Positions 9,136-56,367 of a stretch of 64,000 nucleotides of DNA are shown here, one piece after another (position 1 is the first letter of the stretch; every line of letters starts with the position of its first letter). This DNA is from a virus (lineage: Duplodnaviria; Caudoviricetes), in the IMG/VR virus record IMGVR_UViG_3300044833_000060, positions 918 through 64,917 of that record; one strand, given 5' to 3'. The notes under the pieces were generated by a model, which saw nothing but the letters and a program-made list of their open reading frames with translations, was not told where the DNA came from and searched no databases. The translations under genes were made by a program, and so were the position numbers.

Positions 9136-9360
9136 GGGGTTGGCCTCCTAGAGCCGATTTAAATTTGAGTTATGCTGCTTTTCTTTCCTCACACAGCACC
9201 CATTGATACAAAGTGCCGCGTCCTTCGCATTCCAGTTCCAAATTGCTATCTCTAGCTTCCGAAGCGGTTAATGCAAGGCAATCCAAAGTCTGCCCGCCCG
9301 GACCGATCAGAACGTAATCCCGGACTGTTTCGTATTCCATAAGCGCTTCCTTTCTTCGAT

Positions 9361-39397: not shown

Positions 39398-41004
39398 TGA
39401 GCACTCAGCCACTTTTCGATATGTCGAAGGCCACGCCGATCCCCGGCGCAGCGCAGCCCTTATTTGACATGAGTAAGGCTATGCCGATTGATCAGTCGCT
39501 ACTCGCTGGTCAGGGCTCAGGCACGCCTGCAAAACAACCTTCCGTCTGGCAAACTCTCACGCAACCGACTGATAAGACTGACAAGGAATATCTCGGCTAC
39601 ACAGGACCAGCAGGCGTAGCAGGCGCAACCGTCCACGGCCTCAGTGATGTAGCGCGTAGCACGATTGGGACTGCAAAGGGCGCGGTGAAAATGTTCGATC
39701 CGCATACGCAGCCCGGAGAAAACGCTTTTACCAGTCTGCCAATTGTGCGCGCACTCCGTCCATTTGTAGATGCGGCGAAGCAGATTCCGGAAATTCCGCA
39801 AGCGATCCGCGACATCAATGCCTCACCAGATCCAACCGGAGCCTACCTTAACGCCGCACAAGATACCGCTTCGCAGGGAGCTGGGCAAGCATTGACGGCG
39901 ATTGGAGCAGAGGCACTTCCGAAGGCTCTACCGGGAGCGGCAGAGATTGTAAAACGAACTGTGCCGCCAGTAGTAAGAGGGGTGGCAAAAGGAGCGAACA
40001 CAGTTCTGGCGAAAGCGCCAGGTGGTATCGGCCTTGCAGCAGGCGGCGCACTCGGCCACCTTACTAAGATTCCTTACGCGCCTGAAATTGGCGCGACTAT
40101 TGGGTATGGATTAGGACAAGAGTTACTGCCGAAATTGAAGGTTCCCGGTGAGAACTTTGGCCTCCCGAAGCCGATCTACCGTGGTGCGCCATTGCCTGCA
40201 TCTCCACCGACTGGCGAATTCGTAGACTCGCCGCCACAAGCAACAAATCAGCCTCGGGTCGCACCGTCGCAGGTAGTCGAACCTAAACTGCTTCCGGCAA
40301 CGGCTTCAGGTGCGAGTCGGAGAGTACCGGGAGATATCGCACCAGAAGACGTGAGCACGCCCGACACATCTACACTGGCAGGGAAAAAAGGCATTCGCAT
40401 TGTCCTGCCGGGTACGCCGAAACAACTTCCAGCAGCGACAGCAGAGGCTACTGCGGAAACTCCAACTACCACTTCCGCAGCGCCTAAACCTGCAACGTCG
40501 TCATTGGTTAGCGACCTTCTCAATCGCGGACTAGGGAACGAGCCACCGCCCAAGCCGATTCCTGGAAAGCCTATCTACATGCGGCCTTCTCCTCTGAAAT
40601 CTCCCGCGCCTGAGGCATCGCCTGTTCCAGAAGGCATGACTCCGGTGCAATCTTCAGGGATGAGAGCCTACAGTTACGACGAACCAAGTAAGACGTTCGC
40701 GGCGCAATGGCCTGACGGCTCGATTCATAAATATGGGGAAGTGACACCGGAAGAAGTTCAAGACTTCGAAGCTTCCGACAGCAAAGGGAGGGCGCTGCTA
40801 AAACTTAAAAATAATCACGTTCACGTCGCGGCGAATTACGGGCATGGATGGGTAAACAAAGCTTCGGCGATTCGTTCGGCTACACCAGAGCTAGCGACTA
40901 GCGCACCAGTTCCGAACTCGCCAACATCGGATGATCTGACCGGACTCCTTCAGCAATCCTTGGAGGCGGCGAAGAGTGGGAAAGGGAAGACGGTACGGCC
41001 TTGA
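39397..41004 (+). CDS. DNA ejection protein with C-terminal KTSC domain
   Basis: Twice-repeated PLFDMSKA.PI N-terminus; MTPVQSSGMRAYSYDEPSKTFAAQWPDGSIHKY.EV..E....F..SDSKGR. Confidence 0.65.
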   Translation: MSTQPLFDMSKATPIPGAAQPLFDMSKAMPIDQSLLAGQGSGTPAKQPSVWQTLTQPTDKTDKEYLGYTGPAGVAGATVHGLSDVARSTIGTAKGAVKMFDPHTQPGENAFTSLPIVRALRPFVDAAKQIPEIPQAIRDINASPDPTGAYLNAAQDTASQGAGQALTAIGAEALPKALPGAAEIVKRTVPPVVRGVAKGANTVLAKAPGGIGLAAGGALGHLTKIPYAPEIGATIGYGLGQELLPKLKVPGENFGLPKPIYRGAPLPASPPTGEFVDSPPQATNQPRVAPSQVVEPKLLPATASGASRRVPGDIAPEDVSTPDTSTLAGKKGIRIVLPGTPKQLPAATAEATAETPTTTSAAPKPATSSLVSDLLNRGLGNEPPPKPIPGKPIYMRPSPLKSPAPEASPVPEGMTPVQSSGMRAYSYDEPSKTFAAQWPDGSIHKYGEVTPEEVQDFEASDSKGRALLKLKNNHVHVAANYGHGWVNKASAIRSATPELATSAPVPNSPTSDDLTGLLQQSLEAAKSGKGKTVRP

Positions 41005-41488: not shown

Positions 41489-42244
41489 ATGAAACTTAAA
41501 CGCATCCTTGCAGTCATTGCGCTGTCGTCCGTCTCCTTATGTTGGGCGGCTGGACCATCTCCATTACCTGCTGGTTTAGTTTCGCCATTTCCCCAGCCGC
41601 CAAATTCTACACTTTCAAATGGACTGATGATTGATTCCTCGGGGAACATCATCATTGCGGCGGCAGGCGGTACTCCTAACATCATTACCAGTCTCGGATT
41701 CCCGCTGGACTCGTCGGGCAGGTTGCTTGTTAACTGTGCGACCGGGTGCGGCGTTAGCTTCACTCCTCTTTATCCAGAAGGCTACCTTTCGTGGCAGCCG
41801 GGTACTCTGTACCCTCAGGCGCTTTCTGGAACGTGCGTGTTCGCAGCAGCGACGACTTGCACTATCGCCTACCCAACCACATTCGCATCAGTTCCCGTCG
41901 TCAACATCACGCCTGTCAATCCGGGCGCGGTGACCTTCACAGTCACAACGAGCAGCACGACCCAGATCGTAATTACAGGTAGCGGATCAAATTCGCTCAC
42001 GGTTAATTATTCAGCCACCCTGCCATCAGGAATCAACTGCTCCACAAATACCTTTACTCTGACCGGCGCTCGACAGAATCTCGACTTTGTGACCCCGCTG
42101 TGGCCGTCCGCGCTTCCCGCAAATCTGTCTGCAATAATGCGTGCCTCTGCCAGCGACACTATCGAAGTTCGTCTATGTAATCCCACTGCGGCGACCATAA
42201 CTTTCAGCGCAGCACTGACCTTTGGAGCGAAATTATTCCGATGA
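41489..42244 (+). CDS. Exported fibre-like beta protein
   Basis: Signal peptide MKLKRILAVIALSSVSLCWA|A; T.TIAYP..F...PVV.ITP (H-lectin-like) and IEVRLCN.T motifs. Confidence 0.65.
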   Translation: MKLKRILAVIALSSVSLCWAAGPSPLPAGLVSPFPQPPNSTLSNGLMIDSSGNIIIAAAGGTPNIITSLGFPLDSSGRLLVNCATGCGVSFTPLYPEGYLSWQPGTLYPQALSGTCVFAAATTCTIAYPTTFASVPVVNITPVNPGAVTFTVTTSSTTQIVITGSGSNSLTVNYSATLPSGINCSTNTFTLTGARQNLDFVTPLWPSALPANLSAIMRASASDTIEVRLCNPTAATITFSAALTFGAKLFR

Positions 42245-43965
42245 GAAAATCCCTTATTGTATTCGCAACACTGTTGCTGTCAGGCGTGCTTCAGGCGCAG
42301 CTCCCGACCGCTGGATTAGTCGCACAGTACGACATGCTGACCGCTGTTAGTACGTCACTGACCGACCTTTCCGGAAACGGAAATAACGGAACCATTGTCG
42401 GCACGACGACTACGGCGCAAGGTCGCGTGTGTAACGGCTCGTCAGATTACGTTTCGATGCCGCTTTTAATTGCGAACTCTGATTTCACTGTTATTGTCGC
42501 GGCTACTGGCAACAACCCCAGCACCGGCGGCGCGACCTGGGGGGAGAGTAATGCATCGGCTAGCCAGTTCGTGCGCTTTGGAACGTCTGCGGGCACCTGG
42601 ACCGCATTAAAAGGGAACAGTGCGACCACGAATCTCACGGTCACGGTTCCAGATAAACGACCTGACTGGGATATGTTCTTCGCGTCCCGATCTCAAAGCC
42701 AAATAAGTGGGGGGATGCTGAGTCGAGCGAACGCTACCCAAACTGCCGTCAATGCGGTCCTCGGAACAGTTACGGTCAGCGGCGGCGGTGCGGCTATTTG
42801 CGCACTGAATGAAGGCGCGTCTCGCGTCAATTTCTGGGCAGGCACGATTGGTTATTTCGTGCTCTACAACCGGCACTTGAGCACAACCGAATTGCAGGCG
42901 GCTTATGTTGCCGTAGCAACCGCGGTTTATTCACGCAGCGTTTTCGTTCACCCCTGGCCGCCGAGCGTCCTTCCTGTATACACAAATCCGGTCTGGCAGA
43001 GACAGGGCGTCGTATTCAGTCTCGCAACCTCCGGCGCTGGTTTCACGACTGGAGAGCCATTGGCTCTCTATGACACCACTTGTCCGCAACTCTCGATATC
43101 TACCTGTTTCCGTCTGTGGTACTCAACGGCTGGCGAAACCACCATCGGGTACGCGGAATCACCGGACGGTTTCAAGTGGACCAATCATGGTGCGGCGGGA
43201 AGTTCGGTCTTGACTAGCTGCGTTGCAGCAAGCGTTTTAAAAGTGGCATCCACCTACCACATGTACTGTGGCCGAGCGCAAAACACCGGGCCGATTGACC
43301 ACTACACATCGCCCGATGGAATTACTTGGACCATCGCAGATTCTGGCGTAATCGCGCTCGGTTCAGCAGCGGCTTGGGACGACCTTGGCGTCGCCAATGC
43401 TTCGGTTCAGTACAGCCCCGATGGAAGCGGGACTTGGTACATGCTATACGGCGGCGACTCGGATGGGACGGGCATCTGGACTGGATTTGGAGGTTGGAGA
43501 ACCGGCGGCGCGACATCGCCTGATGGCCACACCTGGACCAAACTGGCGGCGAACCCCACGATTGGACAAGCCGACGTGTTCTATCCATCCCATGCAGGAT
43601 TCGCTTGTTGCGGCAATCCCAACTTCTTTTACATCAATGGCGGGTGGTGGGATTGGGATGGCTCTTACGGAATCGTGCGCTTTGCCTCGCCAGTCTTCAA
43701 CGGACTGTGGATCTGGAGCCAGCCCCATGCCTCTCTGCTGGAGGCTTCTGCCGATGAGTCGAACCAGTTGGCAGACCCCTCTCTCCTGCAAGCCGCGTGC
43801 CCCAGTGCGATCAACTCCGTTACGGGATCGCAATGCACGTTCATGTTTTATACGAGCTACTCGACTAACAGCGTGGGGACATCCGTCATTAAGCTCGCTA
43901 TCGCCAACATGCCGATGTCTCAGCTAGTGACCACGGCGGAAGGGGCAACGACGGACTGGCCATGA
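42241..43965 (+). CDS. Exported LamG-like plus five-bladed beta-propeller glycoside hydrolase-like (GH43/32/130 clan) protein
   Basis: Signal peptide ...GVLQA|Q; LTDLSGNGNNGT...LYNRHLSTTE; repeated (IGYAE/HYT/GGAT)SPDG..WT Asp-box-like motifs; WDD..VANASV. Confidence 0.75.
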   Translation: MRKSLIVFATLLLSGVLQAQLPTAGLVAQYDMLTAVSTSLTDLSGNGNNGTIVGTTTTAQGRVCNGSSDYVSMPLLIANSDFTVIVAATGNNPSTGGATWGESNASASQFVRFGTSAGTWTALKGNSATTNLTVTVPDKRPDWDMFFASRSQSQISGGMLSRANATQTAVNAVLGTVTVSGGGAAICALNEGASRVNFWAGTIGYFVLYNRHLSTTELQAAYVAVATAVYSRSVFVHPWPPSVLPVYTNPVWQRQGVVFSLATSGAGFTTGEPLALYDTTCPQLSISTCFRLWYSTAGETTIGYAESPDGFKWTNHGAAGSSVLTSCVAASVLKVASTYHMYCGRAQNTGPIDHYTSPDGITWTIADSGVIALGSAAAWDDLGVANASVQYSPDGSGTWYMLYGGDSDGTGIWTGFGGWRTGGATSPDGHTWTKLAANPTIGQADVFYPSHAGFACCGNPNFFYINGGWWDWDGSYGIVRFASPVFNGLWIWSQPHASLLEASADESNQLADPSLLQAACPSAINSVTGSQCTFMFYTSYSTNSVGTSVIKLAIANMPMSQLVTTAEGATTDWP

Positions 43966-44058
43966 CACTCATGCCGGAAGAAAATCGCCGCGCTGTACAC
44001 AACGGCACTCGCGGTGTCTCGTTTGACGAGAAACTCTCCACACTTCGCGCAGTGGACT

Positions 44059-45153
44059 TTAAAGGTCCCGTCGCGCTGTTTGTAGACGTTGTAGTTGTTC
44101 TCGGTGCCCATCATGGCCTGAAAGTATAACACGCTGGCCCATGACCCAATCTCGCACCCATCGGCTCGGAGTTTCGATCAGGTACCACGACAACAAGGCG
44201 CACGCAAAAGCGGCTATCAGTGCGGGGATTACCCTGTGCGTTGATTCGGACAGGAAAGGTTGCTGCCAGAGATACAGACTGTAAGAAATCGTTCCCAGAT
44301 AGGCGATGGGCTTCCAGTTTAAAACCCGCCCCGCCGAACAGTCTGGATTGCGAATTACGTAGAACATGATGTAAGCGATGGCGAAGTTTTCAAGCGACAA
44401 GCCGAGCGGTAAGGAATACCAGCCGCGAAAGCGCAGCGCGATCGCAGGGGAAAGCAGAAACAGGAATGCAACGCAACCAAAAGCAGTCCAGCCACTCTCG
44501 GCTTTTCGCCAGAATGCTTGGAACGATTGCTTCGGTTGCAGAAGCGCCAACAATGAACCCGTCATCAATCCGTCCACGCGAAAGTGAAACATGTAGTTGT
44601 CGAACGGGCCGTGATTCCAAACGCCATGGCTGATCGTGCGGATTACTGGAATGCTGGCGATGAGTACTATTGCTACCTTCAACCCTTTGTGTCGTCCTAG
44701 CATCGCGAGTGCAAATGGCCACAGCAAATAAAACTGTTCCTCAATCGAGAGCGACCAACTGTGTCCAGTGGCCCAATCCCATGGAACCGGCGCATAGTCA
44801 CGAACAAACAATAACGAAGCCAGCCACGGTCCCCAATGCGAAGTCAGCCAGCCGAGGTGCGACACCAGAAGAACGACGAACAAGTACACATAAAACGGCG
44901 GGACGATACGAAACAACCGGCGCACATAGAAATCACGAAGGCTTATATGTCCGGACTTGTCTTCTTCGCGGAGAAGCAGACTTGTGATTAAGAACCCGCT
45001 AATGACAAAGAAAATGGAAACACCGAGATCACCCCGTCCGACGAAATTCCAAAGATGTGTTTTGGTGATCGGCACTCCAGCCATCGCATGCGAGAACACC
45101 ACAAGGGCAATTGACGCTGCTCGAAGGCCATCTAGCGATGGGATACGCATCAT
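44059..45153 (-). CDS. Acyltransferase-3 (OafA-like) O-acetyltransferase, antisense moron
   Basis: RIPSLDGLRA..IALVVFSH...GVSIFFVISGFLIT...FYVRRLFRI.P...HSWSLSIEEQFYLLWP...LGTISYSLYLWQ. Confidence 0.93.
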   Translation of the reverse strand: MMRIPSLDGLRAASIALVVFSHAMAGVPITKTHLWNFVGRGDLGVSIFFVISGFLITSLLLREEDKSGHISLRDFYVRRLFRIVPPFYVYLFVVLLVSHLGWLTSHWGPWLASLLFVRDYAPVPWDWATGHSWSLSIEEQFYLLWPFALAMLGRHKGLKVAIVLIASIPVIRTISHGVWNHGPFDNYMFHFRVDGLMTGSLLALLQPKQSFQAFWRKAESGWTAFGCVAFLFLLSPAIALRFRGWYSLPLGLSLENFAIAYIMFYVIRNPDCSAGRVLNWKPIAYLGTISYSLYLWQQPFLSESTHRVIPALIAAFACALLSWYLIETPSRWVRDWVMGQRVILSGHDGHREQLQRLQTARRDL

Positions 45154-45161
45154 GGCGGAAA

Positions 45162-45170
45162 AGTATAGCA
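45162..45170 (-). promoter_or_regulatory. Extended -10 promoter of the acyltransferase moron
   Basis: TG-C-TATACT lying 8 nt upstream of ATG 45153. Confidence 0.5.
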
Positions 45171-45203
45171 CTCCTCAGTTCTCCTAAACCAATTCCACAT
45201 TCC

Positions 45204-47819
45204 ATGCGAAAACTCTTTAGCATCTTCCTGCTCTTGTGGGCCGCTTCAGCCTGCGCGCAAACAGTCCCCGTCACGGCCAAATTGACGGATGGCAGCGGCA
45301 ATCCAGTACCGGGAGCTTATCTTCATTTTGAACTCTACAACTGCGGAAATAACTACCCCTCCGTTCGCAGTGCTGGATTAGTGGTAGTCCAGAGATCGTT
45401 CGACCTACAGCCGAACTCCGCTGGAATAGTTTCGGGTGTCATCACACCCAATGATCTGATCCTATGCGGAAATGTGACTTCCACTTTGTGGACCGTAACG
45501 CTCATGAAGAGTGGGGCCATTCCTCTAAATGCAGCGCAGCGCTACAACATCTGCTCGTCTACCGAAAGCGGTCCGCCTTGCGCGCAATCTAGTCGCGGCG
45601 CGGCTTTTGACCCTTCTTCGGCTCAGCCGGCGCAGGTCGTTTCTGGACTTGTAAATTACATTCCTCAGCCCCCCGGCTACATCCTGCTGTTCGCTAATCC
45701 AAATAACAATCAAACGTGGCAGCAGCCTCTTGGCACAACTGGATACTTCAAGGGGATGTTTGATTTCTCGGGAGCCACAGTAACCGGATTGCCGAGTGGC
45801 GGTGGCGGTGGTGGTGGAAGTTCTACCCCGAATCCTTATGTCTCTTTCACCAATGCTCTAAGCGTTAATCTAGCAACTGGCCTGAATACTCCAGCGCTGA
45901 TTCCGGCTTGCTGGGATTCCAATAACAACTGGTTCTTTCCCGCCAGCGCTCATCAGAACCCATCGACCTCGGTAGTTACCTTCACCTTCGCTACCAATCA
46001 AAGCGGGATCTGTGGAGTGAATGGGACAGGCGGCGGTAGCGGTGGGGGAGGAAGTGGGCCACTTTTAAACGGCACGCAATATGTCGGACTCGGGACTAAC
46101 AGCAATATTGCCACGACCGTCGTAAATGCTGGGACGAACAACGACATTGTAATTCCAGCGAATTATTTAGGAACTGACAGTTTCCCTTATGTCAATACCT
46201 TCAATGCGCCGATCCGGGACAATCGTTTCGGCGTAGCCTCAAATCCTGCTAATCACCTCAGTTACGCGAACAATAGCGAATTCTTCCAGTTGTTCGATGC
46301 TTCTCCGGTCAGCAATGACAACTGCTGCGGATGGGGCGGGCCTCCGGGAGTGGGGAATGCGGCTCCAATGGTCCACTACCATCTGACGGAATCAGGCGCT
46401 GCGAACGCAATGCCTTTAATGGTGGAGAGTGAGTGGGCTTCAGGTGCAACTGGGTTTCAGATTGGTTTTGACTTCGCAACAATTGCTGACAGCGGCTCTC
46501 TTCCTCAGCAATTTTCAAATGTTTTCGTGTTGGCTGACAACTCGGGCTGGACGATTAACTCCTGCACGCTCGTGACTGGAGTCGATACCTGTTCGCTATT
46601 GGGCGCGACCCTTACGGCTGGGCAGCAGGCTGCTCTCGCGGGTAACGGCGTATATGTTTCCGGAAATTCAGCGGCGAACACGGGCGGGGTAACAGGCGTG
46701 ATTACGGGAACGACTGGCACGACTATTACCTTTACAAATGCAAATCAAGTGGGATCTGGCGGCCCCGTGTCTGGCGGAACTATCGCGCCCAATCACTTAG
46801 CCTGGGGAACGGAATGGAATATCTTCAACAACAATCACGATCCTGGGGCAACCACGCCCACCAGCGCACAGAACGTTTTCCCCTTCCATGGATTGACGGT
46901 TACTCCGAGTGGCACTTTTCCGCTGTCAGAAGCTTTTTACGGCGGCGGCGGTGCTTACGCGACCTTCCGCAGCGACAACGCTATTACGGCGGACTTTATG
47001 GCTGGCACGCCAGTCGTAGGTGGGCCGCTGCTTTCAATCGTCGGTTTTGAAGCTCGGCCGCGGCAAGTAGCGACCGCAGGGAACAATTACCCTAGCAAAG
47101 CTATTGCGCTCGACATGAGCGGGTGGAACGGATCTAGTTACTCAGAATCACAGAACCTAATCAAGCGCACTCCGCAGTCGAGCGCGACCAATTCAGCCGG
47201 ACAGTTGTCCTTTATTACTCCACTTACCACCGTCAATCTATTAGACAGCGGCCAATGGCTACCTCCGAATCAGACAGTAGCCGCTCCCGCCTATTCGTTT
47301 GCCGGGAACCCAACTTCAGGATTTGGCATTGATGTCGGAGCCCAGCCGGAAGTATCAGTGAATGGTGTGGAAGTTGCGAGTTTCTCTGGGGTTGGTATGA
47401 ACGCACTGTCCATTTCCACTGGCAGCGGGGCGGGCGGAACAGTCAACCTCGGCTACCTCCTAATGAACGGCTCGGCCCCGACCTGCACATTTACCTCGGG
47501 TGGCGGAACTTCTCCTACCTGCACGCTTGATACGGGATCGGCAAACGGTGCAGGGATCATCATCGCAACGACCGGTACGGGTTCGCCGGCAGCTACCGGC
47601 ACAATCACGCTGTTCTTCAACGGCACCATGGGCAACCACAATCCGGTCTGTCAGTACGAAGCGAGCGACAACGTAGGCGCATGGCAAGCCCTAGCTGTGT
47701 TCAAGGACAAGGGACCGAGTACATCAAGCGACCTTTTCACTTGGACGAATGGTGTGACTCCCACCGCTCTGACTGCTTCTACCGCCTACTGGATCAATTA
47801 TCAATGCGTAGCCAAATAA
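45204..47819 (+). CDS. Exported tail-fibre/spike-like protein
   Basis: Signal peptide MRKLFSIFLLLWAASACA|Q; VTAKLTDGSG.P...FEL...G.ITPND.I....T.W fibre N-terminal-like domain; poly-Gly linkers; APAYSFAG..TSG. Confidence 0.65.
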   Translation: MRKLFSIFLLLWAASACAQTVPVTAKLTDGSGNPVPGAYLHFELYNCGNNYPSVRSAGLVVVQRSFDLQPNSAGIVSGVITPNDLILCGNVTSTLWTVTLMKSGAIPLNAAQRYNICSSTESGPPCAQSSRGAAFDPSSAQPAQVVSGLVNYIPQPPGYILLFANPNNNQTWQQPLGTTGYFKGMFDFSGATVTGLPSGGGGGGGSSTPNPYVSFTNALSVNLATGLNTPALIPACWDSNNNWFFPASAHQNPSTSVVTFTFATNQSGICGVNGTGGGSGGGGSGPLLNGTQYVGLGTNSNIATTVVNAGTNNDIVIPANYLGTDSFPYVNTFNAPIRDNRFGVASNPANHLSYANNSEFFQLFDASPVSNDNCCGWGGPPGVGNAAPMVHYHLTESGAANAMPLMVESEWASGATGFQIGFDFATIADSGSLPQQFSNVFVLADNSGWTINSCTLVTGVDTCSLLGATLTAGQQAALAGNGVYVSGNSAANTGGVTGVITGTTGTTITFTNANQVGSGGPVSGGTIAPNHLAWGTEWNIFNNNHDPGATTPTSAQNVFPFHGLTVTPSGTFPLSEAFYGGGGAYATFRSDNAITADFMAGTPVVGGPLLSIVGFEARPRQVATAGNNYPSKAIALDMSGWNGSSYSESQNLIKRTPQSSATNSAGQLSFITPLTTVNLLDSGQWLPPNQTVAAPAYSFAGNPTSGFGIDVGAQPEVSVNGVEVASFSGVGMNALSISTGSGAGGTVNLGYLLMNGSAPTCTFTSGGGTSPTCTLDTGSANGAGIIIATTGTGSPAATGTITLFFNGTMGNHNPVCQYEASDNVGAWQALAVFKDKGPSTSSDLFTWTNGVTPTALTASTAYWINYQCVAK

Positions 47820-49348
47820 TCCTCATCATCGCGAGTCTCGTCTTAGTAGGCTCAGCTTTCGGGCAGCACACGAACAACAATACCTCGTCGTGCGCAGATT
47901 CGACTTCGCCCTGTAATGGAGTGGGCGTACAGCCATTCCTGAGTAACCCCGCTGATACCGGAGACGAAACCCCAACCGTTAACCCATTAGCGAGCTTCGT
48001 TTCTACCCTTCCAATTAAGTCCTTGCTCTACCCGAGCGCAACTACTCGGGTTGCTTGCGAAGACCAGCCGTGGTTCTTGAACACTGGCGGCTTTAACGGC
48101 CACAAAAACATAGGCATGGACGAAAGCAACCTCGCGCAGAGATTAGAGCAAGCAACAGCCATGAAGACGGCTGGCTGCGACTTGATGATCGAAGATTATT
48201 ACGGTTGCGCAGGCTCCTGTGGCCAGCCTCCCGCGCACAACTTTGAACTCTCGGCGACGACGGGATTCGTTGCTGGCATCGCCGCCAATCCCACTACTAC
48301 CCCGAAGTTTGCCATCATGATCGACGGAGGAGCGATCAGCGGCTCTGGCACTGGTCAGTGTCCAAGTTCCAGTTCGCCTTCGGAAACCTGCATAGAAGCC
48401 GCGCTTAACGCACAGCTTGACTACATGTGCGTGAACTGGCTCTATCAACCCTACTACGAGACGAATGTGAACAATGGTCATCCCATTGTTCTTTACTTCC
48501 TAAGTCAGTCGGCAACCTGGTCAGGCACGAACTTCAATACCGTCTTTGGAGTAGTAGCGGCACACGCCACTGCCGGAAACTCTTGCGGCTCTGGCCACAC
48601 TTACACCGCGACCGTAGATTTCCTCGACGAGAATTCAGGAGCATTTAGCGAGACTGGCATCGCTGGCGGGTATGCTTGGCCCCAGCCGAATACCTACTCG
48701 ATCACGAATCAGTTTCACTGGCAAGGGCCGGGGTCGTTCGATTACCTCGCTGACTTTTATTCTCATGCCCGGTCGAATCCAACAAAGATCGCGATGGGCG
48801 TTCTCTATAAAGGATTCAATGACCACGGGGCGAGTTGGGGATCGAATCGGACAATTGCCCAACAGTGCGGCGGGGTTCTCGGCCTAACTGCGGCCAAGAT
48901 TGGCGCTTCGGGCTATAACTCATCCAGTCAGTTGCAATACGTTCAAGTGGCCACATGGAACGACTACGAAGAGGGAACGGAAATAGAAACCGGACTCGAC
49001 AACTGCATAACCATCGGAACGCCAACTATTGCTGGTGGAACGATATCGTGGCCGCTTATCAAAAGCGACACGACCTACGCATCGACCTCAACCATCAGCA
49101 GCTTTCAAATCTGGACCGGAACGACAATCCCGACCACTCTCTTCGCTTCGGGAATCTCTCCGTCAGTTACCTCAATCACCTCCCCTACCTTGTCCACTGG
49201 ACAAAGTGCATGGGTCTATGCGGTCGGCGGACCATTGATCCAGAACCGGTTATCGCTCCCATCGGCAGCACCAAGCGGAGTTTGTAAAGGCGTCACCTTT
49301 ACCGGGGGAATCACTACTACCGGCGGAATCATAATCCCATGCATGTAA
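47804..49348 (+). CDS. Exported GH71/GH99-like glycoside hydrolase
   Basis: Signal peptide MRSQIILIIASLVLVGSAFG|Q; KFAIMID...YKGFND..ASW..NR...VQVATWNDYEEGTEIE. Confidence 0.75.
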   Translation: MRSQIILIIASLVLVGSAFGQHTNNNTSSCADSTSPCNGVGVQPFLSNPADTGDETPTVNPLASFVSTLPIKSLLYPSATTRVACEDQPWFLNTGGFNGHKNIGMDESNLAQRLEQATAMKTAGCDLMIEDYYGCAGSCGQPPAHNFELSATTGFVAGIAANPTTTPKFAIMIDGGAISGSGTGQCPSSSSPSETCIEAALNAQLDYMCVNWLYQPYYETNVNNGHPIVLYFLSQSATWSGTNFNTVFGVVAAHATAGNSCGSGHTYTATVDFLDENSGAFSETGIAGGYAWPQPNTYSITNQFHWQGPGSFDYLADFYSHARSNPTKIAMGVLYKGFNDHGASWGSNRTIAQQCGGVLGLTAAKIGASGYNSSSQLQYVQVATWNDYEEGTEIETGLDNCITIGTPTIAGGTISWPLIKSDTTYASTSTISSFQIWTGTTIPTTLFASGISPSVTSITSPTLSTGQSAWVYAVGGPLIQNRLSLPSAAPSGVCKGVTFTGGITTTGGIIIPCM

Positions 49349-51018
49349 TGAAAGCTATCTTCGCGGGTCTCTTATTTGTGTCGATTGCTTCGGCGCAGAT
49401 GATTTTCAATGGTGCGCCCGGATTCTCCGTGCCCAACGATCCCACGGTTGGCACCACGTTAAATGGCACAGCAATCATCGGTTCGACTGGGGCCATCGGA
49501 GCGACCACGACCGCAGCCCAACAAATCTACATCGTGGTAGACAATGCTGGAACGACTGGCAGTGCAACCTTAGCTTATTCCGGGATCGCTAAATGTACCT
49601 TCGACACCTCAGTTCCTAATGCAGCGAACTACTTCGTCATTGAATCTCCTTCGTTCAATGGTCAGTGTCATGCGCAACCAACCGCTCCCACCAGTGGATG
49701 GGTTATCGGTTTCCTTTACGATTCCTTAACGACCATCGGACAGACTTCGCGCGTCATCGTCTCCCCATTCCCGATCAGCGGTGTTGGTTCTATCCCTGTG
49801 CCTCTTATGGTGGGCGGCACATCGTTCATCGGGTTCACGGAAGATCCGTTTTGCGCCATCAATTCTCCCTTAGATATTCTCTGCGACCTGAATGTCGGAG
49901 GAGGAAATTCAGAACTTGTTTTCAATGCGAACGGCGCGAATCAAATCCTCGCCTATACCAACGTTCCCCAAGGCTTTACCGCATTACAAACATTCATCGC
50001 CGGCCTTACCGCAACTGGGCCGATAAATGCGAACGGTGGATTGAGTACAACGACACTGAGTGCGACTGGACCCGTCACCGCTAGCGCAGGGATCACCACA
50101 ACGACACTCGGAACTACGGGGCCAGGGGCTGGCGGAAATGCTGAAACGCAGGGAGCAGTTCCGAATTTGGCCGCGTCCCCGAACAGCATCATCGTTAACG
50201 GTGCCCCGAACTCTGTCACTTCGCCTTACTTTCAATATTGGCCGGGTGCGCCGGGGACGGGATTGTTTCTCGGTACAGCCTCAGCCGCGGCTACTTTCGG
50301 AACTTGCGTGTTTAGTGCTGGTGCAGTTACTTCGTGTCCCGTCAGTTCTGGTGGCACCTATGGCGAGACGCCTGGATGCTGGTTAACTGGCGGCGGCGGT
50401 ACTGGGGCTCTCTGCACGTTCACGATGTCCGGTACTGCAATCGCTACAGTGGTGATATCTCCCGGCGGCGTTGCATACACTTCGGCTCCAACGGTGAACG
50501 CGACCAAGGAAGTCGCAGTCTCTCAAGTTCCCTTGCCAATTAGCGGCGCGGTCACGGCGGCGGATGTAACCTGCGGCACTGGCGGAACGATTTCTTCCTG
50601 CGCGTCGGCCACAACAATTCCGGGACTGAGTTTCACCCTGCCCTTACTGGCTACGAACTGGACGATGGACTGTGATTTAGTCGTAGGTCAGGCCACGGCG
50701 GCAACGGCAAATCAGTGGCTCATTCAAACCGCAACCAACGGCGTAACTAATACCACTGCCTCCTACACAATGGCCACCGCAGCTACGGCAGCTATGGCGG
50801 TTGGCGCGGTCACCGATCAAGCCTCGACTACCACAGCCTTTCAAATCTCGCCATCGTGGACGCTGGGCGGCACTGCGACCAAGATGCCGGTGCACATCCA
50901 CGCGCTACTTGAAGGGGTTTCGGTATCTGGAACCGTGGTCAATCTGCAGGTGCTCGCGCCGACCGTGGCCGACCTGCTCACCATTTACCGAGGGGCTTCG
51001 TGCTCACTGCATCAGTGA
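49348..51018 (+). CDS. Exported fibre-like protein
   Basis: Signal peptide MKAIFAGLLFVSIASA|Q; SSGGTY..TP....GGGGTGA and GG..YTSAPTV motifs; GLSFTL...LTIYRGASC tip; TAATG coupling. Confidence 0.65.
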   Translation: MKAIFAGLLFVSIASAQMIFNGAPGFSVPNDPTVGTTLNGTAIIGSTGAIGATTTAAQQIYIVVDNAGTTGSATLAYSGIAKCTFDTSVPNAANYFVIESPSFNGQCHAQPTAPTSGWVIGFLYDSLTTIGQTSRVIVSPFPISGVGSIPVPLMVGGTSFIGFTEDPFCAINSPLDILCDLNVGGGNSELVFNANGANQILAYTNVPQGFTALQTFIAGLTATGPINANGGLSTTTLSATGPVTASAGITTTTLGTTGPGAGGNAETQGAVPNLAASPNSIIVNGAPNSVTSPYFQYWPGAPGTGLFLGTASAAATFGTCVFSAGAVTSCPVSSGGTYGETPGCWLTGGGGTGALCTFTMSGTAIATVVISPGGVAYTSAPTVNATKEVAVSQVPLPISGAVTAADVTCGTGGTISSCASATTIPGLSFTLPLLATNWTMDCDLVVGQATAATANQWLIQTATNGVTNTTASYTMATAATAAMAVGAVTDQASTTTAFQISPSWTLGGTATKMPVHIHALLEGVSVSGTVVNLQVLAPTVADLLTIYRGASCSLHQ

Positions 51019-52874
51019 TGACTTACGTAAGACAGATTCTCGTAGCCGTGCTGCTCTGTGGCCTGAGTTACGCCCAGATCGGCCTCAACACTCCCGTGCA
51101 GATGAATGTGTGGGCCGTCCCCTATACGACATCCACTTATAGTCCAGATGGCCTCAACGTAGCCTGCCCGAACGGTGGAGGGGCGGTCGATACCTTTTTA
51201 GCGGCCAATGCTAGAGCAACCATCCTTCCGGGAACGGCGCGATGTGTCGATCAGACTCCTTCCGCAGGACCGTACTCAAGTCCGACCTACTCGTGGACCG
51301 GCTTCGACGCGATGGCGTTGAACTATCTGAATTCTTCGACCGGGCTTGCGGGAACCAGCGCCAATGCGACCGGACATCTTGCATTCGTGGTTCAGCATCA
51401 GGCGAATCCATCGCTCTCGCCTCCCGGCTACACCCCGCCCTACATCGTTACCCAAGGCTGGGCCGATGCCGCAATCTGCGGAACGGTGAATTCTCCCATC
51501 GGCTTTCTGTGGGCGGCAAATCAGATTTATCAAGCAGGCTGGCAAACCTGTTTCAAGATCAGCGGCACGAATTACTACTTTCAGACCACCAATGCTATTT
51601 CCTGCCTAACCGGATCGTCCACGCCCGCATTTACCATCGGCGGCACCAATATTTCGGATGGGGGATGCGTCTGGAACTACGTTGGGATCCATGCTCTACC
51701 TCAGGATGTAGTGACCAATGGGTGCTCCTCGACTGGCACTTACGGATTTGTGGCGCCGTGGCAAGCCGGTCAGCCTTATTCTCTCGGAAATCAGGTTACA
51801 GCCGCAACGCTGGTCACGGGAGGAGTTTGCTACAAAGTCACAACCGCTGGCACCAGTGGCGGCAGTCAGCCGGCTTGTATCACTACGAACACCTGCGGCG
51901 CGACCGTTACCGACAATACGGTGACTTGGACCAAGGAAACCTCCAACGTCGTTCTCAATGCCACCACTGAGACGGGAGCGCCGGATTCTACTTGCACGGG
52001 ATGCGGAACGGCCGGGTCGGCGAGCGTCTTAGCGCAAAGTTTCTTAGTGCCATTTGAGCAACCGTACATGGTGTGGGTGGCGCGGCTCAATCGCGATGTC
52101 ATGATCCATACCTTAGCGGCGAACTATGGCCAGTATGTGGACTACGAGCGCTTTGGCTGGTCTCTGGGCGGAGAACATTCCCCCGAACTGATGACCATTG
52201 TCGAAACCGTTCTGCCTGTCGCCTTTCAAGATGACGAATCCCTGGAAGCGGAATGGGTGGGTGGGGCGGAAGTCATGATGCGATTGAATTCGGCCTGGTG
52301 GGTGAATCATTGCCAAGGGACCGGCGGCTGCAATTTCAAAATGGTGGCGGCGGTGAATTGTGGTGCGGGACTTCCGAATACTCCCGGCGGGGTGGATTGT
52401 ACTTGGGCTGCGGACGAAGCTCTCTATGCCGCCAGTTTGCCGGGTTACATCGTCGGATCGAATGGGGTAGCAGGGTTTCAATGCAATGGCTGCACTCAGC
52501 CTGGCGACCTTACGGCCAACGCCTCAGGCGCGCCAACCTCAAACGGAAATAGCCTCTGGCATCCGCTTCTCTACGGCAAAACCACAATCATTGAGCAGAT
52601 GGCGAATTGCTCGACTCCGGTCTCGACCTGCCCACAAGCCTCATCCGGAACGGCGGTCGGGGATCTACGAGTGATCTTGCCGTTCGCTACTCAGTCTGGA
52701 GTAAACATTTTGGAGATTTACGAGAAAGACTGGAAATGTGCGTTTCTCGGCACCAGTTGTTCAACGCAAGCCAGTTACTTACAAGCCTTCATCAATGCTT
52801 CGCAGGGAATCCCTACAGCCACCGGACAGACGGTTGGATCGGGAAATAGTGTTGGCGCGGGGACCATGCAATGA
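51018..52874 (+). CDS. Exported glycan-active protein with CBM5/12-like inserts
   Basis: Signal peptide MTYVRQILVAVLLCGLSYA|Q; YSWTGFD; WAANQIY...DGGCVW and WQAGQPYSLGNQV...AGTSGGSQP...DNTVTW; LEIYEKDW. Confidence 0.65.
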   Translation: MTYVRQILVAVLLCGLSYAQIGLNTPVQMNVWAVPYTTSTYSPDGLNVACPNGGGAVDTFLAANARATILPGTARCVDQTPSAGPYSSPTYSWTGFDAMALNYLNSSTGLAGTSANATGHLAFVVQHQANPSLSPPGYTPPYIVTQGWADAAICGTVNSPIGFLWAANQIYQAGWQTCFKISGTNYYFQTTNAISCLTGSSTPAFTIGGTNISDGGCVWNYVGIHALPQDVVTNGCSSTGTYGFVAPWQAGQPYSLGNQVTAATLVTGGVCYKVTTAGTSGGSQPACITTNTCGATVTDNTVTWTKETSNVVLNATTETGAPDSTCTGCGTAGSASVLAQSFLVPFEQPYMVWVARLNRDVMIHTLAANYGQYVDYERFGWSLGGEHSPELMTIVETVLPVAFQDDESLEAEWVGGAEVMMRLNSAWWVNHCQGTGGCNFKMVAAVNCGAGLPNTPGGVDCTWAADEALYAASLPGYIVGSNGVAGFQCNGCTQPGDLTANASGAPTSNGNSLWHPLLYGKTTIIEQMANCSTPVSTCPQASSGTAVGDLRVILPFATQSGVNILEIYEKDWKCAFLGTSCSTQASYLQAFINASQGIPTATGQTVGSGNSVGAGTMQ

Positions 52875-55183
52875 AAAAACTCTTACTGATCTTCCTTTCG
52901 ATAGCCGGCCTCGCTGCGGCGCAGACCCAAATCAATTCGACTCCTAATCCGGTGACCGCCTTAGTGCTACCCGCTCTCACCGTGCCCCTGAGCGCCGTTC
53001 CTGTGACCATGCAATGCCTGACCGTACTGACGGATGGTACACAGAGCACCCCAGCGCTCTTGGCCGTATGGTCCAGTTCCAATCCTGCAGTAGCCACCAT
53101 CGTCTCTGGGCTGAATGGAGTGGCAACCATTGGCCTAGTTGCAGCGGGTACTACCACGATTTCCTGCTTCATGAGCGGGAAGACCGGATCAAATACTCTG
53201 ACGGTTACTGCCACCCCGACTATCACCGCTCCGAGCTGTGGAACGCCGCCCTGCGCTTTGCCGGGTGGAAGCAATGGCGCGGCATATACCAGTTCACTGG
53301 CTGCGACGGGTGGCGTGTTGCCTTATACCTGGACTTGCCCGACCACATGCAGTAAGCCAGCATGGTTAAGCATCAATGCTTCCACGGGCGCTTTGACCGG
53401 CACAGCAGCTACCGGCAGCACGACTTTTACCATTCAGGTGTGCGATAGCACCAGCCCTACTCCATCCTGCAATACGCTTTCGGTCACTCTTGCGGTGACT
53501 AGCAGTTGTGGACCTCCGACATACAGTTGCTCACGAACCGACACTTCACCCCTATCTTATGCCGCTTCCCTTGTTCCTCCTCAAATGGGAGCGAATTCCT
53601 GTAGCGCGGGAAGTTTGGCAGCCTGCGGAAACCTGGTCGGAGCTGGAACCTTAGTCAACGACCCGTTCTTGTCGAATCCGGTCATGCGCCTTACCGATAA
53701 CACTACGAGTCGGGCGGACCAGCCGAACGTCACCAACGTTGCCGATATCAGCGGATCGGGCGATGAGATGCATTTCAGTTGCGACTCGTCCATGGTTACC
53801 GTGGGAAGTATTAATAGTTGGGCCTTCCCCATGAATTTCACCTGGGGTTCGGCACCCACGAAGATGTACGCCACCTCGTTCGGAAATGGCGGACTCTACT
53901 TCTCGGGTGCGAATGGCGGCATGGCATGGGGCCACGTATGTCCGAGCAATGCCAACGTTCTATACATCCTGAATGGCACCGTGTTGGGGCATTATAACCT
54001 TGCGGGAAATTGCCCGACGTGTACCGCGCCATCCGTGGTTACCGACTTTGACTTCGCCAGTTCCGCGAATTGCTTGGGAACCTATACGTCCACTTGGGCG
54101 GATTTTGGTGGAGGCGATCAGTTTGATACGGACTATGCTGTTGGCTTTTCAAAAACCGGTGGACAGGGTACAGGAACGAAATTAGCGGTCTGGCGCAAAG
54201 GCTTTGGCTGTCGCGTACTCGATACTTCCACGGATACCGTGACTGGCGATTGGGGTCCGACCGGCGTCATTCCCGGCACGCCCTGCACCGGAACCATTCA
54301 CAACGACAAGATTGCCAAGGTTGGCGGGAGCGCCGGATCTGTTCTCTGGGCAATCACGGGCGCATCGGCGGGATGTGGAACGTCAGCGGCAACCCAACCG
54401 TGGCAGTGGAATTATGCCAGCTCTACCTTGACCGGAAGCATTTCTTCGGCCTGCACCGGAGTTCATTGTTCTGGCCATTGGACCGAGGGATTATCCACCT
54501 TCGCGAACAATCCTGGCGATGTTGCTCCGAATGCACTGACGGTCAGACCTTTAACCACTCCCGGAACAGGAACTGGCATCACTCCGGTTTATCCCGTGGT
54601 TGCGCCAACGGACTCCCATTTCGGCTGGAACCAACTCATCGACTCGCAACCATTCTTAGGAACCTTTTCGCGCTTTACCGGCTTACCTCCCGTGGCCGCA
54701 TGGGAAAACGAGGTAGTCGGCTTCCAGCCCATTTCGAGCGGCAAGCAGTATCGCTTCGCCTCCACCTATAACACTGGAGTGAGTCCCTATTTCTCTACCC
54801 AATACGCGATCGGCAGCGTTTCCCAGGACGGCAAGTATTTCATATTCTCTTCCGACTGGATGAACACACTGGGCTCCATCAGCGGCGGAAGTACCTGCGT
54901 TCCTCACGGCCCGAATTGGGCAGCTTCCACTGTCTACGCGGCTACGCCCTACTTGTCGAGTTTCCCTGCCAATGGCGGGGTCATCAAGCCGACTTCAGGA
55001 AATGCTGGTGGATATTCCTACAAAGCCTCCACTGCCGGTACGAGTGGATTAGCGCCTCCTACGTGGCCACAGACAGTTGGTGGAACCGTTGCCGATGGCA
55101 GCACCTTGGTCTGGACAAACGTTGACGCCGAAGGGACAACGAAAGCCTGTCGCGGTGATGTATTTGTCGTCCTCTTGCAGTAA
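52871..55183 (+). CDS. Exported Big_2 plus He_PIG Ig-like plus beta-propeller/CBM protein
   Basis: Signal peptide MKKLLLIFLSIAGLAAA|Q; WSSSNPAVATI; LAATGG..PYTW...P.WLSINASTGALTGT; SVSQDGKYFIFSSDW; RGDVFVV. Confidence 0.75.
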   Translation: MKKLLLIFLSIAGLAAAQTQINSTPNPVTALVLPALTVPLSAVPVTMQCLTVLTDGTQSTPALLAVWSSSNPAVATIVSGLNGVATIGLVAAGTTTISCFMSGKTGSNTLTVTATPTITAPSCGTPPCALPGGSNGAAYTSSLAATGGVLPYTWTCPTTCSKPAWLSINASTGALTGTAATGSTTFTIQVCDSTSPTPSCNTLSVTLAVTSSCGPPTYSCSRTDTSPLSYAASLVPPQMGANSCSAGSLAACGNLVGAGTLVNDPFLSNPVMRLTDNTTSRADQPNVTNVADISGSGDEMHFSCDSSMVTVGSINSWAFPMNFTWGSAPTKMYATSFGNGGLYFSGANGGMAWGHVCPSNANVLYILNGTVLGHYNLAGNCPTCTAPSVVTDFDFASSANCLGTYTSTWADFGGGDQFDTDYAVGFSKTGGQGTGTKLAVWRKGFGCRVLDTSTDTVTGDWGPTGVIPGTPCTGTIHNDKIAKVGGSAGSVLWAITGASAGCGTSAATQPWQWNYASSTLTGSISSACTGVHCSGHWTEGLSTFANNPGDVAPNALTVRPLTTPGTGTGITPVYPVVAPTDSHFGWNQLIDSQPFLGTFSRFTGLPPVAAWENEVVGFQPISSGKQYRFASTYNTGVSPYFSTQYAIGSVSQDGKYFIFSSDWMNTLGSISGGSTCVPHGPNWAASTVYAATPYLSSFPANGGVIKPTSGNAGGYSYKASTAGTSGLAPPTWPQTVGGTVADGSTLVWTNVDAEGTTKACRGDVFVVLLQ

Positions 55184-55205
55184 TTGAAAAGAAGGAGTTT
55201 CTCAA

Positions 55206-55565
55206 ATGAAAACTGTACACACACTGATCATCGCAGGGGCAATCATTATAGCCGGAGCGCTGGCTGGACTCGCGCAAAGCTATGGCGGATTCACCTTCGG
55301 CCCGATTGCCCCAGCCGTGGCGAATTGCCCCATTGGTCAGGCAAATTACGCCACATTGTGCTCCGTGGGAACGTCACCAACGAGCTACGCGACCTACGTC
55401 AGTTACAACTTGGGAGCATACCAACCCCTGATCCCGCCTCCTGCTCCAGTAGGCGTGACTTCCTTCAATAAGCGCACTGGAGACATTCAATTGACGGATC
55501 TGGACGTGCAACAGGCTGGCGTAAAAGTCTCTACGACCGTGACGGCAGTTTCTACCGTTCAGTAA
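55206..55565 (+). CDS. Small exported protein with phage-tail-repeat-like motif
   Basis: AAGGAG RBS; signal peptide ...GALAGLA|Q; GVTSFNKRTGDIQLT.LDV. Confidence 0.65.
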   Translation: MKTVHTLIIAGAIIIAGALAGLAQSYGGFTFGPIAPAVANCPIGQANYATLCSVGTSPTSYATYVSYNLGAYQPLIPPPAPVGVTSFNKRTGDIQLTDLDVQQAGVKVSTTVTAVSTVQ

Positions 55566-55684: not shown

Positions 55685-56047
55685 TTACCCAAGCAATTGC
55701 ATTCGGTATGGGGATCGCCAATTTCTCCAGAACACGTCATTGCGTAAGCGCATCTCCGTCTTGCGGGTCACCTTGACGGCTGGCACGTCGGGCGGCTCGG
55801 GCGCGTCGCATGACGGAATTTTTGGCACAATACCTACTTGCTGAAGGCTGCCTGTATAGCAAGCTACTGACTCCACTTTTTCACCGCATTCGTCTGGGAA
55901 GATGTCTTTGATAGCCTTCGTGGATTTCCCGAAGGTGATTGTTTTGTCACAACTATCGGTTGTCGTCGGCAGAATGGTATGGTTTTCGGTTGTTTGCCCT
56001 ACTGCTGTACCCACCAAAACCAGCAATGCTAAAAAGTAAGGTCTCAT
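55685..56047 (-). CDS. Small exported Cys-containing protein (possibly frameshifted)
   Basis: MRPYFLALLVLVGTAVG|Q signal peptide. Confidence 0.55.
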   Translation of the reverse strand: MRPYFLALLVLVGTAVGQTTENHTILPTTTDSCDKTITFGKSTKAIKDIFPDECGEKVESVACYTGSLQQVGIVPKIPSCDAPEPPDVPAVKVTRKTEMRLRNDVFWRNWRSPYRMQLLG

Positions 56048-56367
56048 CGTCCAACCTCGTCTTTCCTTGGCAGCCGACATGATGGCTTGTGTTTATGATC
56101 TTCAGAGCCGCCCGAGATTTCCCCATTCTTCGACGCGCCCATGACACCGCCGTCAGGTAAGACTTGCACATATCCTACCGGGCATTGCCAAAATCCTGGC
56201 ATTGCATATTTATCCCAGTACGGGTGGGCAATCCACAATGGGTCTGGGTTTTCTCCAGTCGCGTGCGGCACAGGATAAGTCCCGTGAGTCTGGGTACGCT
56301 GCGTCTGACTTTCGCATCGTGCCAGTCCCAAGCAAAGTACCAGTAGTGCCAAAAAGTAAGTTTTCAT
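56044..56367 (-). CDS. Small exported Cys-containing protein
   Basis: MKTYFLALLVLCLGLARCES|Q; GGAGAG RBS. Confidence 0.55.
   Translation of the reverse strand: MKTYFLALLVLCLGLARCESQTQRTQTHGTYPVPHATGENPDPLWIAHPYWDKYAMPGFWQCPVGYVQVLPDGGVMGASKNGEISGGSEDHKHKPSCRLPRKDEVGR

Follow-up and report, generated by a model that had tools for sequence, protein, structure and literature searches.

Eight putatively exported, cysteine-rich proteins in the fibre position of a predicted SU10-like podophage

Introduction

In the textbook view, tailed phages are assembled wholly in the cytoplasm, and we know of no tailed-phage fibre or spike that carries an export signal. Here we analyse a stretch of 64,000 nucleotides of viral DNA (Duplodnaviria; Caudoviricetes; positions 918 to 64,917 of the IMG/VR record IMGVR_UViG_3300044833_000060), referred to as the window, in which eight plus-strand genes between positions 41489 and 55565, referred to as the module, appear to encode exported, cysteine-rich fibre-like and enzyme-like proteins. 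The fibres and tailspikes of podoviruses (T7 gp17, P22 gp9, SU10 gp12, gp13 and gp16) are similar in being encoded by large, late, modular genes with an N-terminal domain, a variable middle and a distal knob, and glycan-cutting domains are common among them. They differ in folding in the cytoplasm and in lacking a signal peptide, whereas all eight module proteins have leaders predicted to be cleavable and even numbers of cysteines. According to a passage of a recent preprint, the P22 tailspike has no signal peptide, as export is not needed (bioRxiv 10.64898/2026.09.13.751334).

Inoviruses such as M13 and fd assemble at the membrane and are extruded without lysis, whereas the window phage has the genes of an HK97-type capsid with portal, adaptor and nozzle and would be assembled in the cytoplasm. 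The inovirus protein G3p is disulfide-bonded outside the cytoplasm. It is presented in the abstract of one article (PMC8310372) as a Sec-exported receptor-binding protein of the virion. Secreted proteins are also encoded by tailed phages and prophages: signal peptides were counted in 3,261 of 64,678 prophage carbohydrate-active enzymes (CAZymes), or 5%, in an excerpt of one survey (PMC13507307), and five signal-peptide genes obeying a rule of glutamine at position +1 are mentioned for Porphyromonas gingivalis phages in part of another paper (PMC10367356). The module genes g47804 and g42241 would fit among such secreted CAZymes and 'moron' proteins. These are, however, single cargo genes, whereas the window has eight late genes, fibre-type genes included, in the sole place left for fibres.

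Tunturi 2, a cultured Tunturiibacter phage and thus a podophage of Acidobacteria, has a similar set of genes, gp12–gp17 (PP885685; PMC11924767), with leaders such as AAAS/AQ and FAGA/Q (a slash marks the predicted cut throughout) and with products named 'tail fiber', 'pectin lyase' and 'virion structural', names that are predictions and not the outcome of proteomics. It differs in that tblastn of the window ORFs (open reading frames) found no similarity to it at E≤1e-3. The terms 'signal peptide' and 'mass spectrometry' are absent from the paper on the Tunturi phages (PMC11924767), and our literature search, outside which most subscription journals lay, found no paper on Sec signal peptides of tailed-phage fibres or spikes.

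Signal peptides and cysteines of the module proteins

A preliminary description of this DNA had attributed a classic signal peptide to every gene of the module, and all eight plus-strand ORFs were found at the starts claimed for them. We called signal peptides by a rule of our own: a net positive n-region, an uncharged hydrophobic stretch of 8–18 residues and small residues at positions -3 and -1; the rule is also described with a cut 15–30 residues in. All eight module genes pass, compared with seven of the 84 other window ORFs of at least 60 residues (Fisher p = 7e-8). None of these seven lies in the head–nozzle–ejection block (20531–41463), in agreement with the earlier statement that the core genes are free of signal peptides. 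Neither a twin-arginine motif nor a lipobox is present in the eight leaders, as read from their sequences.

Glutamine stands directly after the predicted cut in seven of the eight proteins (…QA/Q, …CA/Q, …FG/Q, …SA/Q, …YA/Q, …AA/Q, …LA/Q), for example in g42241 (leader ending VLQA/Q), g45204 (SACA/Q), g51018 (LSYA/Q) and g55206, whose leader is long and hydrophobic (AGLA/Q). The sole member without it is g41489, where our rule predicts the signal peptide MKLKRILAVIALSSVSLCWA followed by AG. In related viral loci, 33 of 39 exported ORFs have [AGSC]-Gln at the cut, compared with 286 of 2,433 control windows (11.8%). This 'Q-rule' of signal peptidase I substrates is described as Bacteroidetes-specific in the abstract of PMC5837995, whereas the genomes with the best g47804 homologues are almost all those of Acidobacteriota. 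Gln+1 is frequent in such secreted proteins of Acidobacteriota type: among leader-bearing homologues, it was counted in 53 of 87 and 92 of 103 (module families; P0002–P0277; L114, L115). Of five Acidobacteriota metagenome-assembled genomes searched, two contain a gene for a glutaminyl cyclase of the Glu_cyclase_2 family.

The richness in cysteine that had been noted for the module is equally apparent: its proteins contain 1.7–3.7% Cys. The values are 0–1.0% for the major capsid protein (MCP), the portal, the nozzle, two ejection-type proteins and three small tail ORFs, and 2.1% for the adaptor and g34920. The predicted mature chains hold, in module order, 6, 10, 14, 14, 12, 22, 24 and 2 cysteines, an even number in all eight; the count is even in 11 of 30 signal-less ORFs of the window. 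In relatives, the number of mature cysteines is even in 35 of 42 exported proteins (p = 7.5e-6), compared with 53 of 109 in the comparison set. All cysteines can thus be counted as pairs, as in disulfide-bonded proteins of the periplasm or the extracellular space.

The signal peptides are kept in homologues of g47804, g49348 and g45204, as expected if the first description was correct. In the g47804 family, 87 of 107 homologues starting with Met pass the signal rule. The g49348 family gives 103 of 140, the remainder including many fragments or leaders failing the rule (105 of the 150 best rows, with the query row counted), and at least 90% of the 54 sequences in the alignment have Q17. Only six sequences represent the g45204 family; four pass the strict rule, all six begin with a leader, and A18 and Q19 are invariant in the six aligned sequences. 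Because the leader is conserved, Gln+1 fits the host clade and cysteines are even in every mature chain, we regard export of the module proteins as well supported by their sequences. As each of the eight combines a secretion signal with cysteines that can all be paired, the kit very probably folds outside the cytoplasm, the compartment in which the particle is built.

Position of the module in the phage genome

The record is 64,917 bp long with a 127-bp terminal repeat, of which the window comprises bases 918–64917; the repeat at the record ends indicates a complete phage genome. Pfam recognises SU10_MCP at 25842–27086 (1.7e-26, 93.9 bits, cut-off 24.1) and SU10_adaptor at 30991–31719 (3.1e-8, 34.7 bits, cut-off 27), and a weak match to SU10_portal at 21602–23833 lies below its cut-off (21.7 bits against 30). 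Directly 3' of the adaptor is a gene of 896 residues in the nozzle position (31728–34418), followed by small ORFs, by two low-complexity ejection-type proteins (37712–41004; a KTSC domain was found by Pfam in the protein at 39397–41004) and by the module. Genes for TerS, ERF, YqaJ and a LexA-type repressor were also detected with Pfam. The SU10-type MCP and adaptor together with the repressor and recombination genes indicate that the window phage is, by gene content, a podophage of SU10-like build and probably temperate. Its host most likely belongs to the Acidobacteriota (Terriglobales).

The module starts 25 nucleotides after the last late gene with g41489 (41489–42244, plus strand, 251 residues). 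The tight coupling of its genes noted before is evident from junctions of -4, -16, -1, -1 and -4 nucleotides and gaps of 25 and 22 nucleotides. The sole break, 1,238 nucleotides long, is occupied by a minus-strand gene (44059–45171) for an acyltransferase-3 family membrane protein of the O-acetylase type (Pfam Acyl_transf_3, 1.3e-31; PHROG O-acetyltransferase, 7.1e-42, and O-antigen acetylase, 9.1e-39). The longest ORFs for g45204 and g47804 begin upstream of the starts used here; the public gene call for g45204 has the same start as ours (871 residues), and alignments of g47804 with its homologues start at the signal peptides of the latter. No Shine-Dalgarno motif is recognisable at any module start, and a promoter and terminator scan, which returned fewer sites than in shuffled sequences, was uninformative.

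Beyond the nozzle gene, the window has no signal-less ORF of more than 250 residues except the two ejection-type genes. Parts of the description of SU10 itself (PMC9509320) place its fibre genes between adaptor and nozzle, whereas these two genes adjoin in the window. The statement that the module occupies the usual podophage fibre position is therefore to be qualified: the module follows the ejection-type genes, which is not where SU10 has its fibres. That the module closes the late operon of an SU10-like podophage forms part of the explanation that we favour, and to which, as a whole, we give a little better than an even chance.

Fibre-like proteins g45204 and g49348

Searches of the module proteins with Pfam and PHROG gave He_PIG in g52871 as the sole clear match. 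The mosaic protein g45204 (45204–47819, plus strand, 871 residues) consists of an N-terminal beta-sandwich (residues 19 to ∼150), Gly-rich linkers, a central domain (288–761) and a C-terminal domain (750–871). Its six homologues differ in the part that they have in common with it: the N-domain (19 to ∼270), the centre (288–761) or the C-terminus (750–871). In one viral locus (L029), an N-domain of the g45204 type is joined to a segment matching PHROG tail fiber families (9.6e-10). The AF2 model of residues 1–290 has a mean pLDDT of 57, with values of 64–79 over residues 20–140. The best structural match of the N-domain (19–150) in VIA is the N-domain of the neck fibre of cyanophage A-1(L) (Z 8.0, root-mean-square deviation 2.9, 99 aligned residues), followed by N-terminal domains of the Ur-lambda tail tip (7.7), the Bxb1 tail tip (6.9) and the XM1 neck (6.7); a Z of at most 5.9 was obtained for generic folds (transthyretin-like, pilin). 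A Foldseek search of the N-domain against the PDB gave no match at E≤1e-3. The fibre N-terminal-like domain proposed earlier for g45204 thus finds some, if weak, backing in VIA and none in Foldseek. The modelled fold is weakly suggestive of the domains by which neck and side fibres of phages dock to the virion.

The second protein, g49348 (49348–51018, plus strand, 556 residues), has an N-domain (∼17–150), a middle without a confident model and a C-terminal knob (392–556). Its N-domain (1–150) and C-domain (400–555) recombine independently among 373 homologues. AF2 models the knob at a pLDDT of 86–96 and residues 20–390 below 50. The knob is a TNF/C1q-like jelly roll in this model: the closest structures are the TNF-like lectin PLTL (Z 11.1), chlamydial Pgp3 (9.8), the CBD of the A-1(L) short tail fibre (9.4) and a tail chain of cyanophage A4 (9.1), with many C1q/TNF members after them. 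It also matches 313 BFVD models at E≤1e-3, and the top ranks are dominated by collagen-repeat, C1q and tail-fibre proteins from Caudovirales and giant viruses. TNF/C1q-like knobs are trimeric in solved examples, and we interpret the modelled domain as a distal receptor-binding knob of a trimeric fold type. The neck and short tail fibres of a single cyanophage, A-1(L) (PDB 8keg, 8ke9), thus resemble the g45204 N-domain (Z 8.0) and the g49348 knob (Z 9.4), respectively.

For the low-confidence N-domain of g49348, the Atlas offers an unconfirmed lead, a resemblance to a cement protein of the capsid (TM by row 0.82/0.75). A search of 185,579 species genomes with the knob alignment brought up no relative; it used two strict patterns only and is weak evidence of absence. 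Sequence searches of the PDB with the g47804- and g45204-family alignments, alignment A3 and g52871 returned nothing meaningful. Taken together, the layouts suggest that at least two module proteins, g45204 and g49348, are domain-shuffled modular fibre proteins.

Enzyme-like proteins g47804 and g42241

The gene g47804 (47804–49348, plus strand) encodes a predicted exported protein of 514 residues, and its earlier assignment as GH71/GH99-like (GH, glycoside hydrolase) is upheld by its homologues. There are 816 of them at E≤1e-3, many bearing PF03659 (GH71) or PF16317 (GH99), with E about 1e-35 to many of the proteins with these domains. A Terriglobales protein is 32% identical over 425 residues (E 3e-50), and the motif TWNDYEEGTEIETG is present in both. 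No Pfam family matches g47804 itself even at E≤5; PF03659 and PF16317 match its more distant homologues. The block N386, D387, Y388, E389, E390 and E395, which we take to be the GH99 catalytic motif, is invariant in the family alignment. A genome scan located 590 loci; among the 80 best, every record title except one gives an Acidobacteriota lineage, the Candidatus genera among them being placed in this phylum on our own assumption. Three loci of the g47804 type that were read through are chromosomal and not phage-like, and the best 80 contain no match to other genes of the window phage except HNH, a single small ORF and, in L032, the C-terminus of g52871.

For g42241 (42241–43965, plus strand, 574 residues), a LamG-like lectin domain and a GH43-like propeller had been proposed. 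ESM Atlas features and fold support both as leads, and Pfam gives no match at E≤5. The feature score to Laminin_G_3 and BNR/GH43/GH32 clusters is 0.94 with 170 shared features (a lead only), and residues ∼234–570, in the Atlas model, match the structures of GH43/32/130 clusters with a TM by row of 0.75, which would correspond to a five-bladed beta-propeller of the GH43/32/130-like type. By sequence and layout, g47804 and g42241 look like ordinary secreted Acidobacteriota enzymes.

A homologue of g47804 occurs in another complete phage genome, G002 (97.8 kb), as the N-terminal part of an exported protein of 1289 residues (locus L002, 9147–14282). It is flanked by two small lipoprotein-like genes and looks like cargo rather than a virion gene. 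An endolysin motif recognised by eye, together with the genome size, hints that G002 may be a Tunturi-3-like phage.

Remaining putative exported proteins

Pfam and PHROG give no match for g41489, nor for the Cys-rich orphan g51018 (51018–52874, plus strand, 618 residues), which has two weak partial matches among 5.8 billion proteins. The Ig domain reported in the module is confirmed as the He_PIG domain at residues 126–206 of g52871 (Pfam, 8.8e-10). This protein (52871–55183, plus strand, 770 residues) also has large C-terminal regions; parts of it match exported proteins in four loci (L002, L005, L024 and L030), giant proteins of other phages among them, and its C-terminus is also found in a chromosomal protein of 2042 residues (L032). 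The last gene, g55206 (55206–55565, plus strand), encodes a small protein of 119 residues that is predicted to be exported or signal-anchored. A homologue with 44% identity directly follows a g52871-like C-terminus in L030, so that g55206 and g52871 may work together. The tail-repeat motif GVTSFNKRTGDIQL previously read in g55206 did not hold up: it has no Pfam match at E≤5, is found nowhere else in our data and is absent from the L030 homologue.

A ninth putative exported protein is encoded outside the module, between terminase region and portal (18296–18898, plus strand; 200 residues from an internal Met). It has the signal peptide MRSNRLIGFTIALLVFSGVAALA followed by Gln and a fibre-type C-terminal domain: residues 111–212 of the ORF share 31% identity with the C-terminus of one of the exported, fibre-like proteins of phage G001.

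Putative exported fibre-like proteins in other phages

The g49348-type knob is present in 14 viral contigs, and every carrier inspected shows either a leader or a membrane segment inside the protein. Three ORFs considered as signal-less cytoplasmic carriers of the knob (L021, 5664–8096; L027, 4476–8468; L026, 5736–8468) were rejected on reading their N-termini. Those of L021 and L027 begin with a Cys-rich, zinc-ribbon-like part of ∼85 residues, continue with a membrane segment ending in Ala-Gln and belong to proteins with the TNF/C1q-like knob, a layout that suggests a membrane-anchored fibre with a cytoplasmic domain. The L026 ORF has an internal Met with a classic leader.

Relatives sharing domains with the module match the PHROG families for tail fiber and tail spike. 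L018 is truly related to the window phage (MCP 37%, portal 41% and adaptor 28% identical); between its portal and scaffold genes lies one for a tailspike-like protein that is exported (PHROG tail spike, 1.3e-7). The complete 69-kb genome of the podophage G003 has the order portal, capsid, a gene of 239 residues in the adaptor position, a gene of 948 residues in the nozzle position and ejection-type genes; these are followed by four exported proteins of 862, 258, 1219 and 1498 residues. G001 encodes at least four exported fibre-like proteins with one common N-domain, and the long-tailed provirus G004 (L014/L015, 15760–24684) has exported proteins of 645, 1695 and 629 residues. The window capsid protein has no match in G001, G002, G003 or G004, which indicates different lineages. 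The G004 trio lies between head–tail connector and tail-tube genes, an unusual position for fibres.

In Tunturi 2, gp12, gp14 and gp17 pass our signal rule, and the leaders of gp13 ('tail fiber') and gp16 are obvious by eye; the five proteins contain 20 (gp12), 21 (gp14), 34 (gp17), 10 (gp13) and 2 (gp16) cysteines. No match to the MCP, g45204, g49348, g42241, g52871 or g47804 was found by tblastn in 50,697 cultured-phage records, and no viral relatives of the last ejection-type protein turned up.

Destination of the putative exported proteins

The preliminary description had weighed virion appendages against a secreted arsenal. The export common to both stands; as to the destination, the evidence points to a mixture. 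The explanation we modestly favour is that of an exported, periplasm-folded, mixed kit whose fibre-like members dock late. Each product would carry a Sec/signal peptidase I leader, be exported and cleaved, and form its disulfide bonds in the periplasm, a step that is well supported by the sequences. In this kit, g47804 and g42241 would be host-derived secreted glycan enzymes or lectins, and g45204 and g49348 phage-type, domain-shuffled fibres, which g41489 and g52871 may join; g55206 would be a possible periplasmic helper for g52871. All products presumably act on the host surface polysaccharide, which the embedded O-acetylase-type gene fits. The fibre-like members would wait in the periplasm and dock on particles built in the cytoplasm when the inner membrane has been opened by the holin, or else at lysis, and the enzyme-like members would be released free, clearing slime or receptors around the burst. 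Such late docking is physically plausible, since tailspikes of P22 and fibres of T4, once purified, attach in vitro to particles that lack them. As a generalisation, tailed phages of Acidobacteria might assemble in two compartments, with fibres and spikes exported by Sec, trimmed to an N-terminal Gln, disulfide-bonded and docked after the holin breach; we advance this tentatively, as a proposal somewhat short of an even chance.

Several points weigh against late docking of a mixed kit. The attachment of module proteins to the virion is an inference, Sec export reaches the periplasm only, and docking after lysis would compete with dilution. The signal-peptide calls come from a crude home-made rule. 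The model of the g45204 N-domain is weak (pLDDT 57), and its best Z of 8.0 falls in a range that is common without a true match. In g47804 and g42241 nothing lies between the leader and the enzyme-like domain, and neither has a fibre-like N-domain; the g47804 homologue of G002 is encoded ∼9.5 kb past an endolysin-like ORF, a location that fits a free enzyme. Finally, none of the 28 annotated structural-region coding sequences of Tunturi 3, a cultured podophage of Acidobacteria, passes the signal rule, and its fibres are signal-less and Cys-poor. The host therefore does not force export, and the trait would be a choice of some phage lineages.

It is possible, though we think it distinctly less probable, that all eight proteins are exported and none joins the particle. 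They would then be soluble late lectins and glycanases released at lysis that strip or mask slime and receptors, so that the progeny escape without re-adsorbing to debris, and adsorption would fall to the nozzle or to small signal-less proteins. This agrees with the whole-length similarity of g47804 and g42241 to ordinary secreted Acidobacteriota enzymes, in which no docking domain is seen, and with the place of the G002 homologue of g47804 away from virion genes. Moreover, no N-terminal domain is common to all eight module proteins, and secreted prophage CAZymes are known, at 5% in the excerpt cited above (PMC13507307). However, g45204 and g49348 are modular in the manner of receptor-binding fibres: the N-domain is conserved, the middle varies and a TNF/C1q-like domain forms the knob; the best structural matches of the modelled g45204 N-domain are virion-docking domains; and neither the window nor G003 nor Tunturi 2 has another fibre or spike candidate.

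We consider it improbable that the genes yield two isoforms, a leader form that is exported and a shorter form from an internal start that is built into the particle, or that the N-termini are not export signals at all. Each gene does have at least one in-frame ATG, GTG or TTG within ∼40 codons after the cut (for example Met18 of g49348, after Ala-Gln), and the starts cannot be ranked as no Shine-Dalgarno motif is recognisable at any of them. The internal starts are, however, at non-conserved places and without an upstream motif, whereas the leader and the Ala-Gln site are kept across distant homologues, and the even cysteine numbers (8/8 mature chains, 35/42 in relatives) argue for an oxidised functional form. 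Least probable of all is that the module encodes surface proteins of lysogenic conversion, expressed by the prophage independently of the late operon for surface remodelling or phage exclusion, since despite the temperate look of the phage (LexA-type repressor, ERF, YqaJ), the O-acetylase-type gene inside the module and two small exported proteins just downstream on the minus strand, the eight genes lie on the late strand from 25 nucleotides after the last late gene with five overlapping junctions, as is usual for a single late transcript, the acyltransferase of conversion type is on the other strand, and 14 kb of giant mosaic proteins are, in our judgement, unlike known exclusion genes.

Here and in several unrelated phages of one host phylum, every protein in the fibre position appears built for export and disulfide bonding. 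If the fibre-like members reach the particle, phage assembly gains a previously unknown extracytoplasmic last step, and host-range proteins could be recruited directly from secreted glycan enzymes and lectins of the host, making the disulfide-stabilised extracellular folds of host secreted proteins usable by phage fibres. A signal peptide would then no longer be a safe reason for not annotating a gene as one for a virion or receptor-binding protein in soil viromes. Late docking, if shown, would be a categorically new assembly route for Caudoviricetes. If the module proteins stay off the particle, abundant soil phages would release large glycan-degrading kits at lysis, which would bear on the counting of viral 'auxiliary' carbohydrate enzymes in carbon-cycling studies. 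The question could be put to a direct test in Tunturi 2, which is in culture and shares the feature.

Other genes of the window phage

Convergent with the module lie two small overlapping minus-strand genes (55685–56080 and 56044–56367) with similar signal peptides (MRPYFLALLVLVGTA... and MKTYFLALLVLCLGLA...), which may encode conversion or exclusion proteins.

A large terminase subunit is not recognisable, as the ORFs between TerS (17076–17639) and the portal have no Pfam or PHROG terminase match. This interval contains ORFs at 17551–18294, 19605–20183 and 20531–21601, and its products include an exported protein and a methyltransferase of the PCMT type. Upstream of TerS, near small membrane proteins, is a gene for a Tlde1-domain protein (16506–17060; PHROG 24118, 2.3e-26), probably a cell-wall hydrolase; its homologue in G003 (15974–16330) directly follows exported fibre genes.

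The interval between capsid and adaptor (28162–31003) contains two glycosyltransferase-like genes and a gene for a NAD-dependent sugar epimerase. These may serve the glycosylation of virion proteins or a change of the host polysaccharide. In L018, ORFs of similar size occupy the same place (8657–10674), and one of them has a Gly-rich N-terminus that resembles, by eye, that of the window epimerase.

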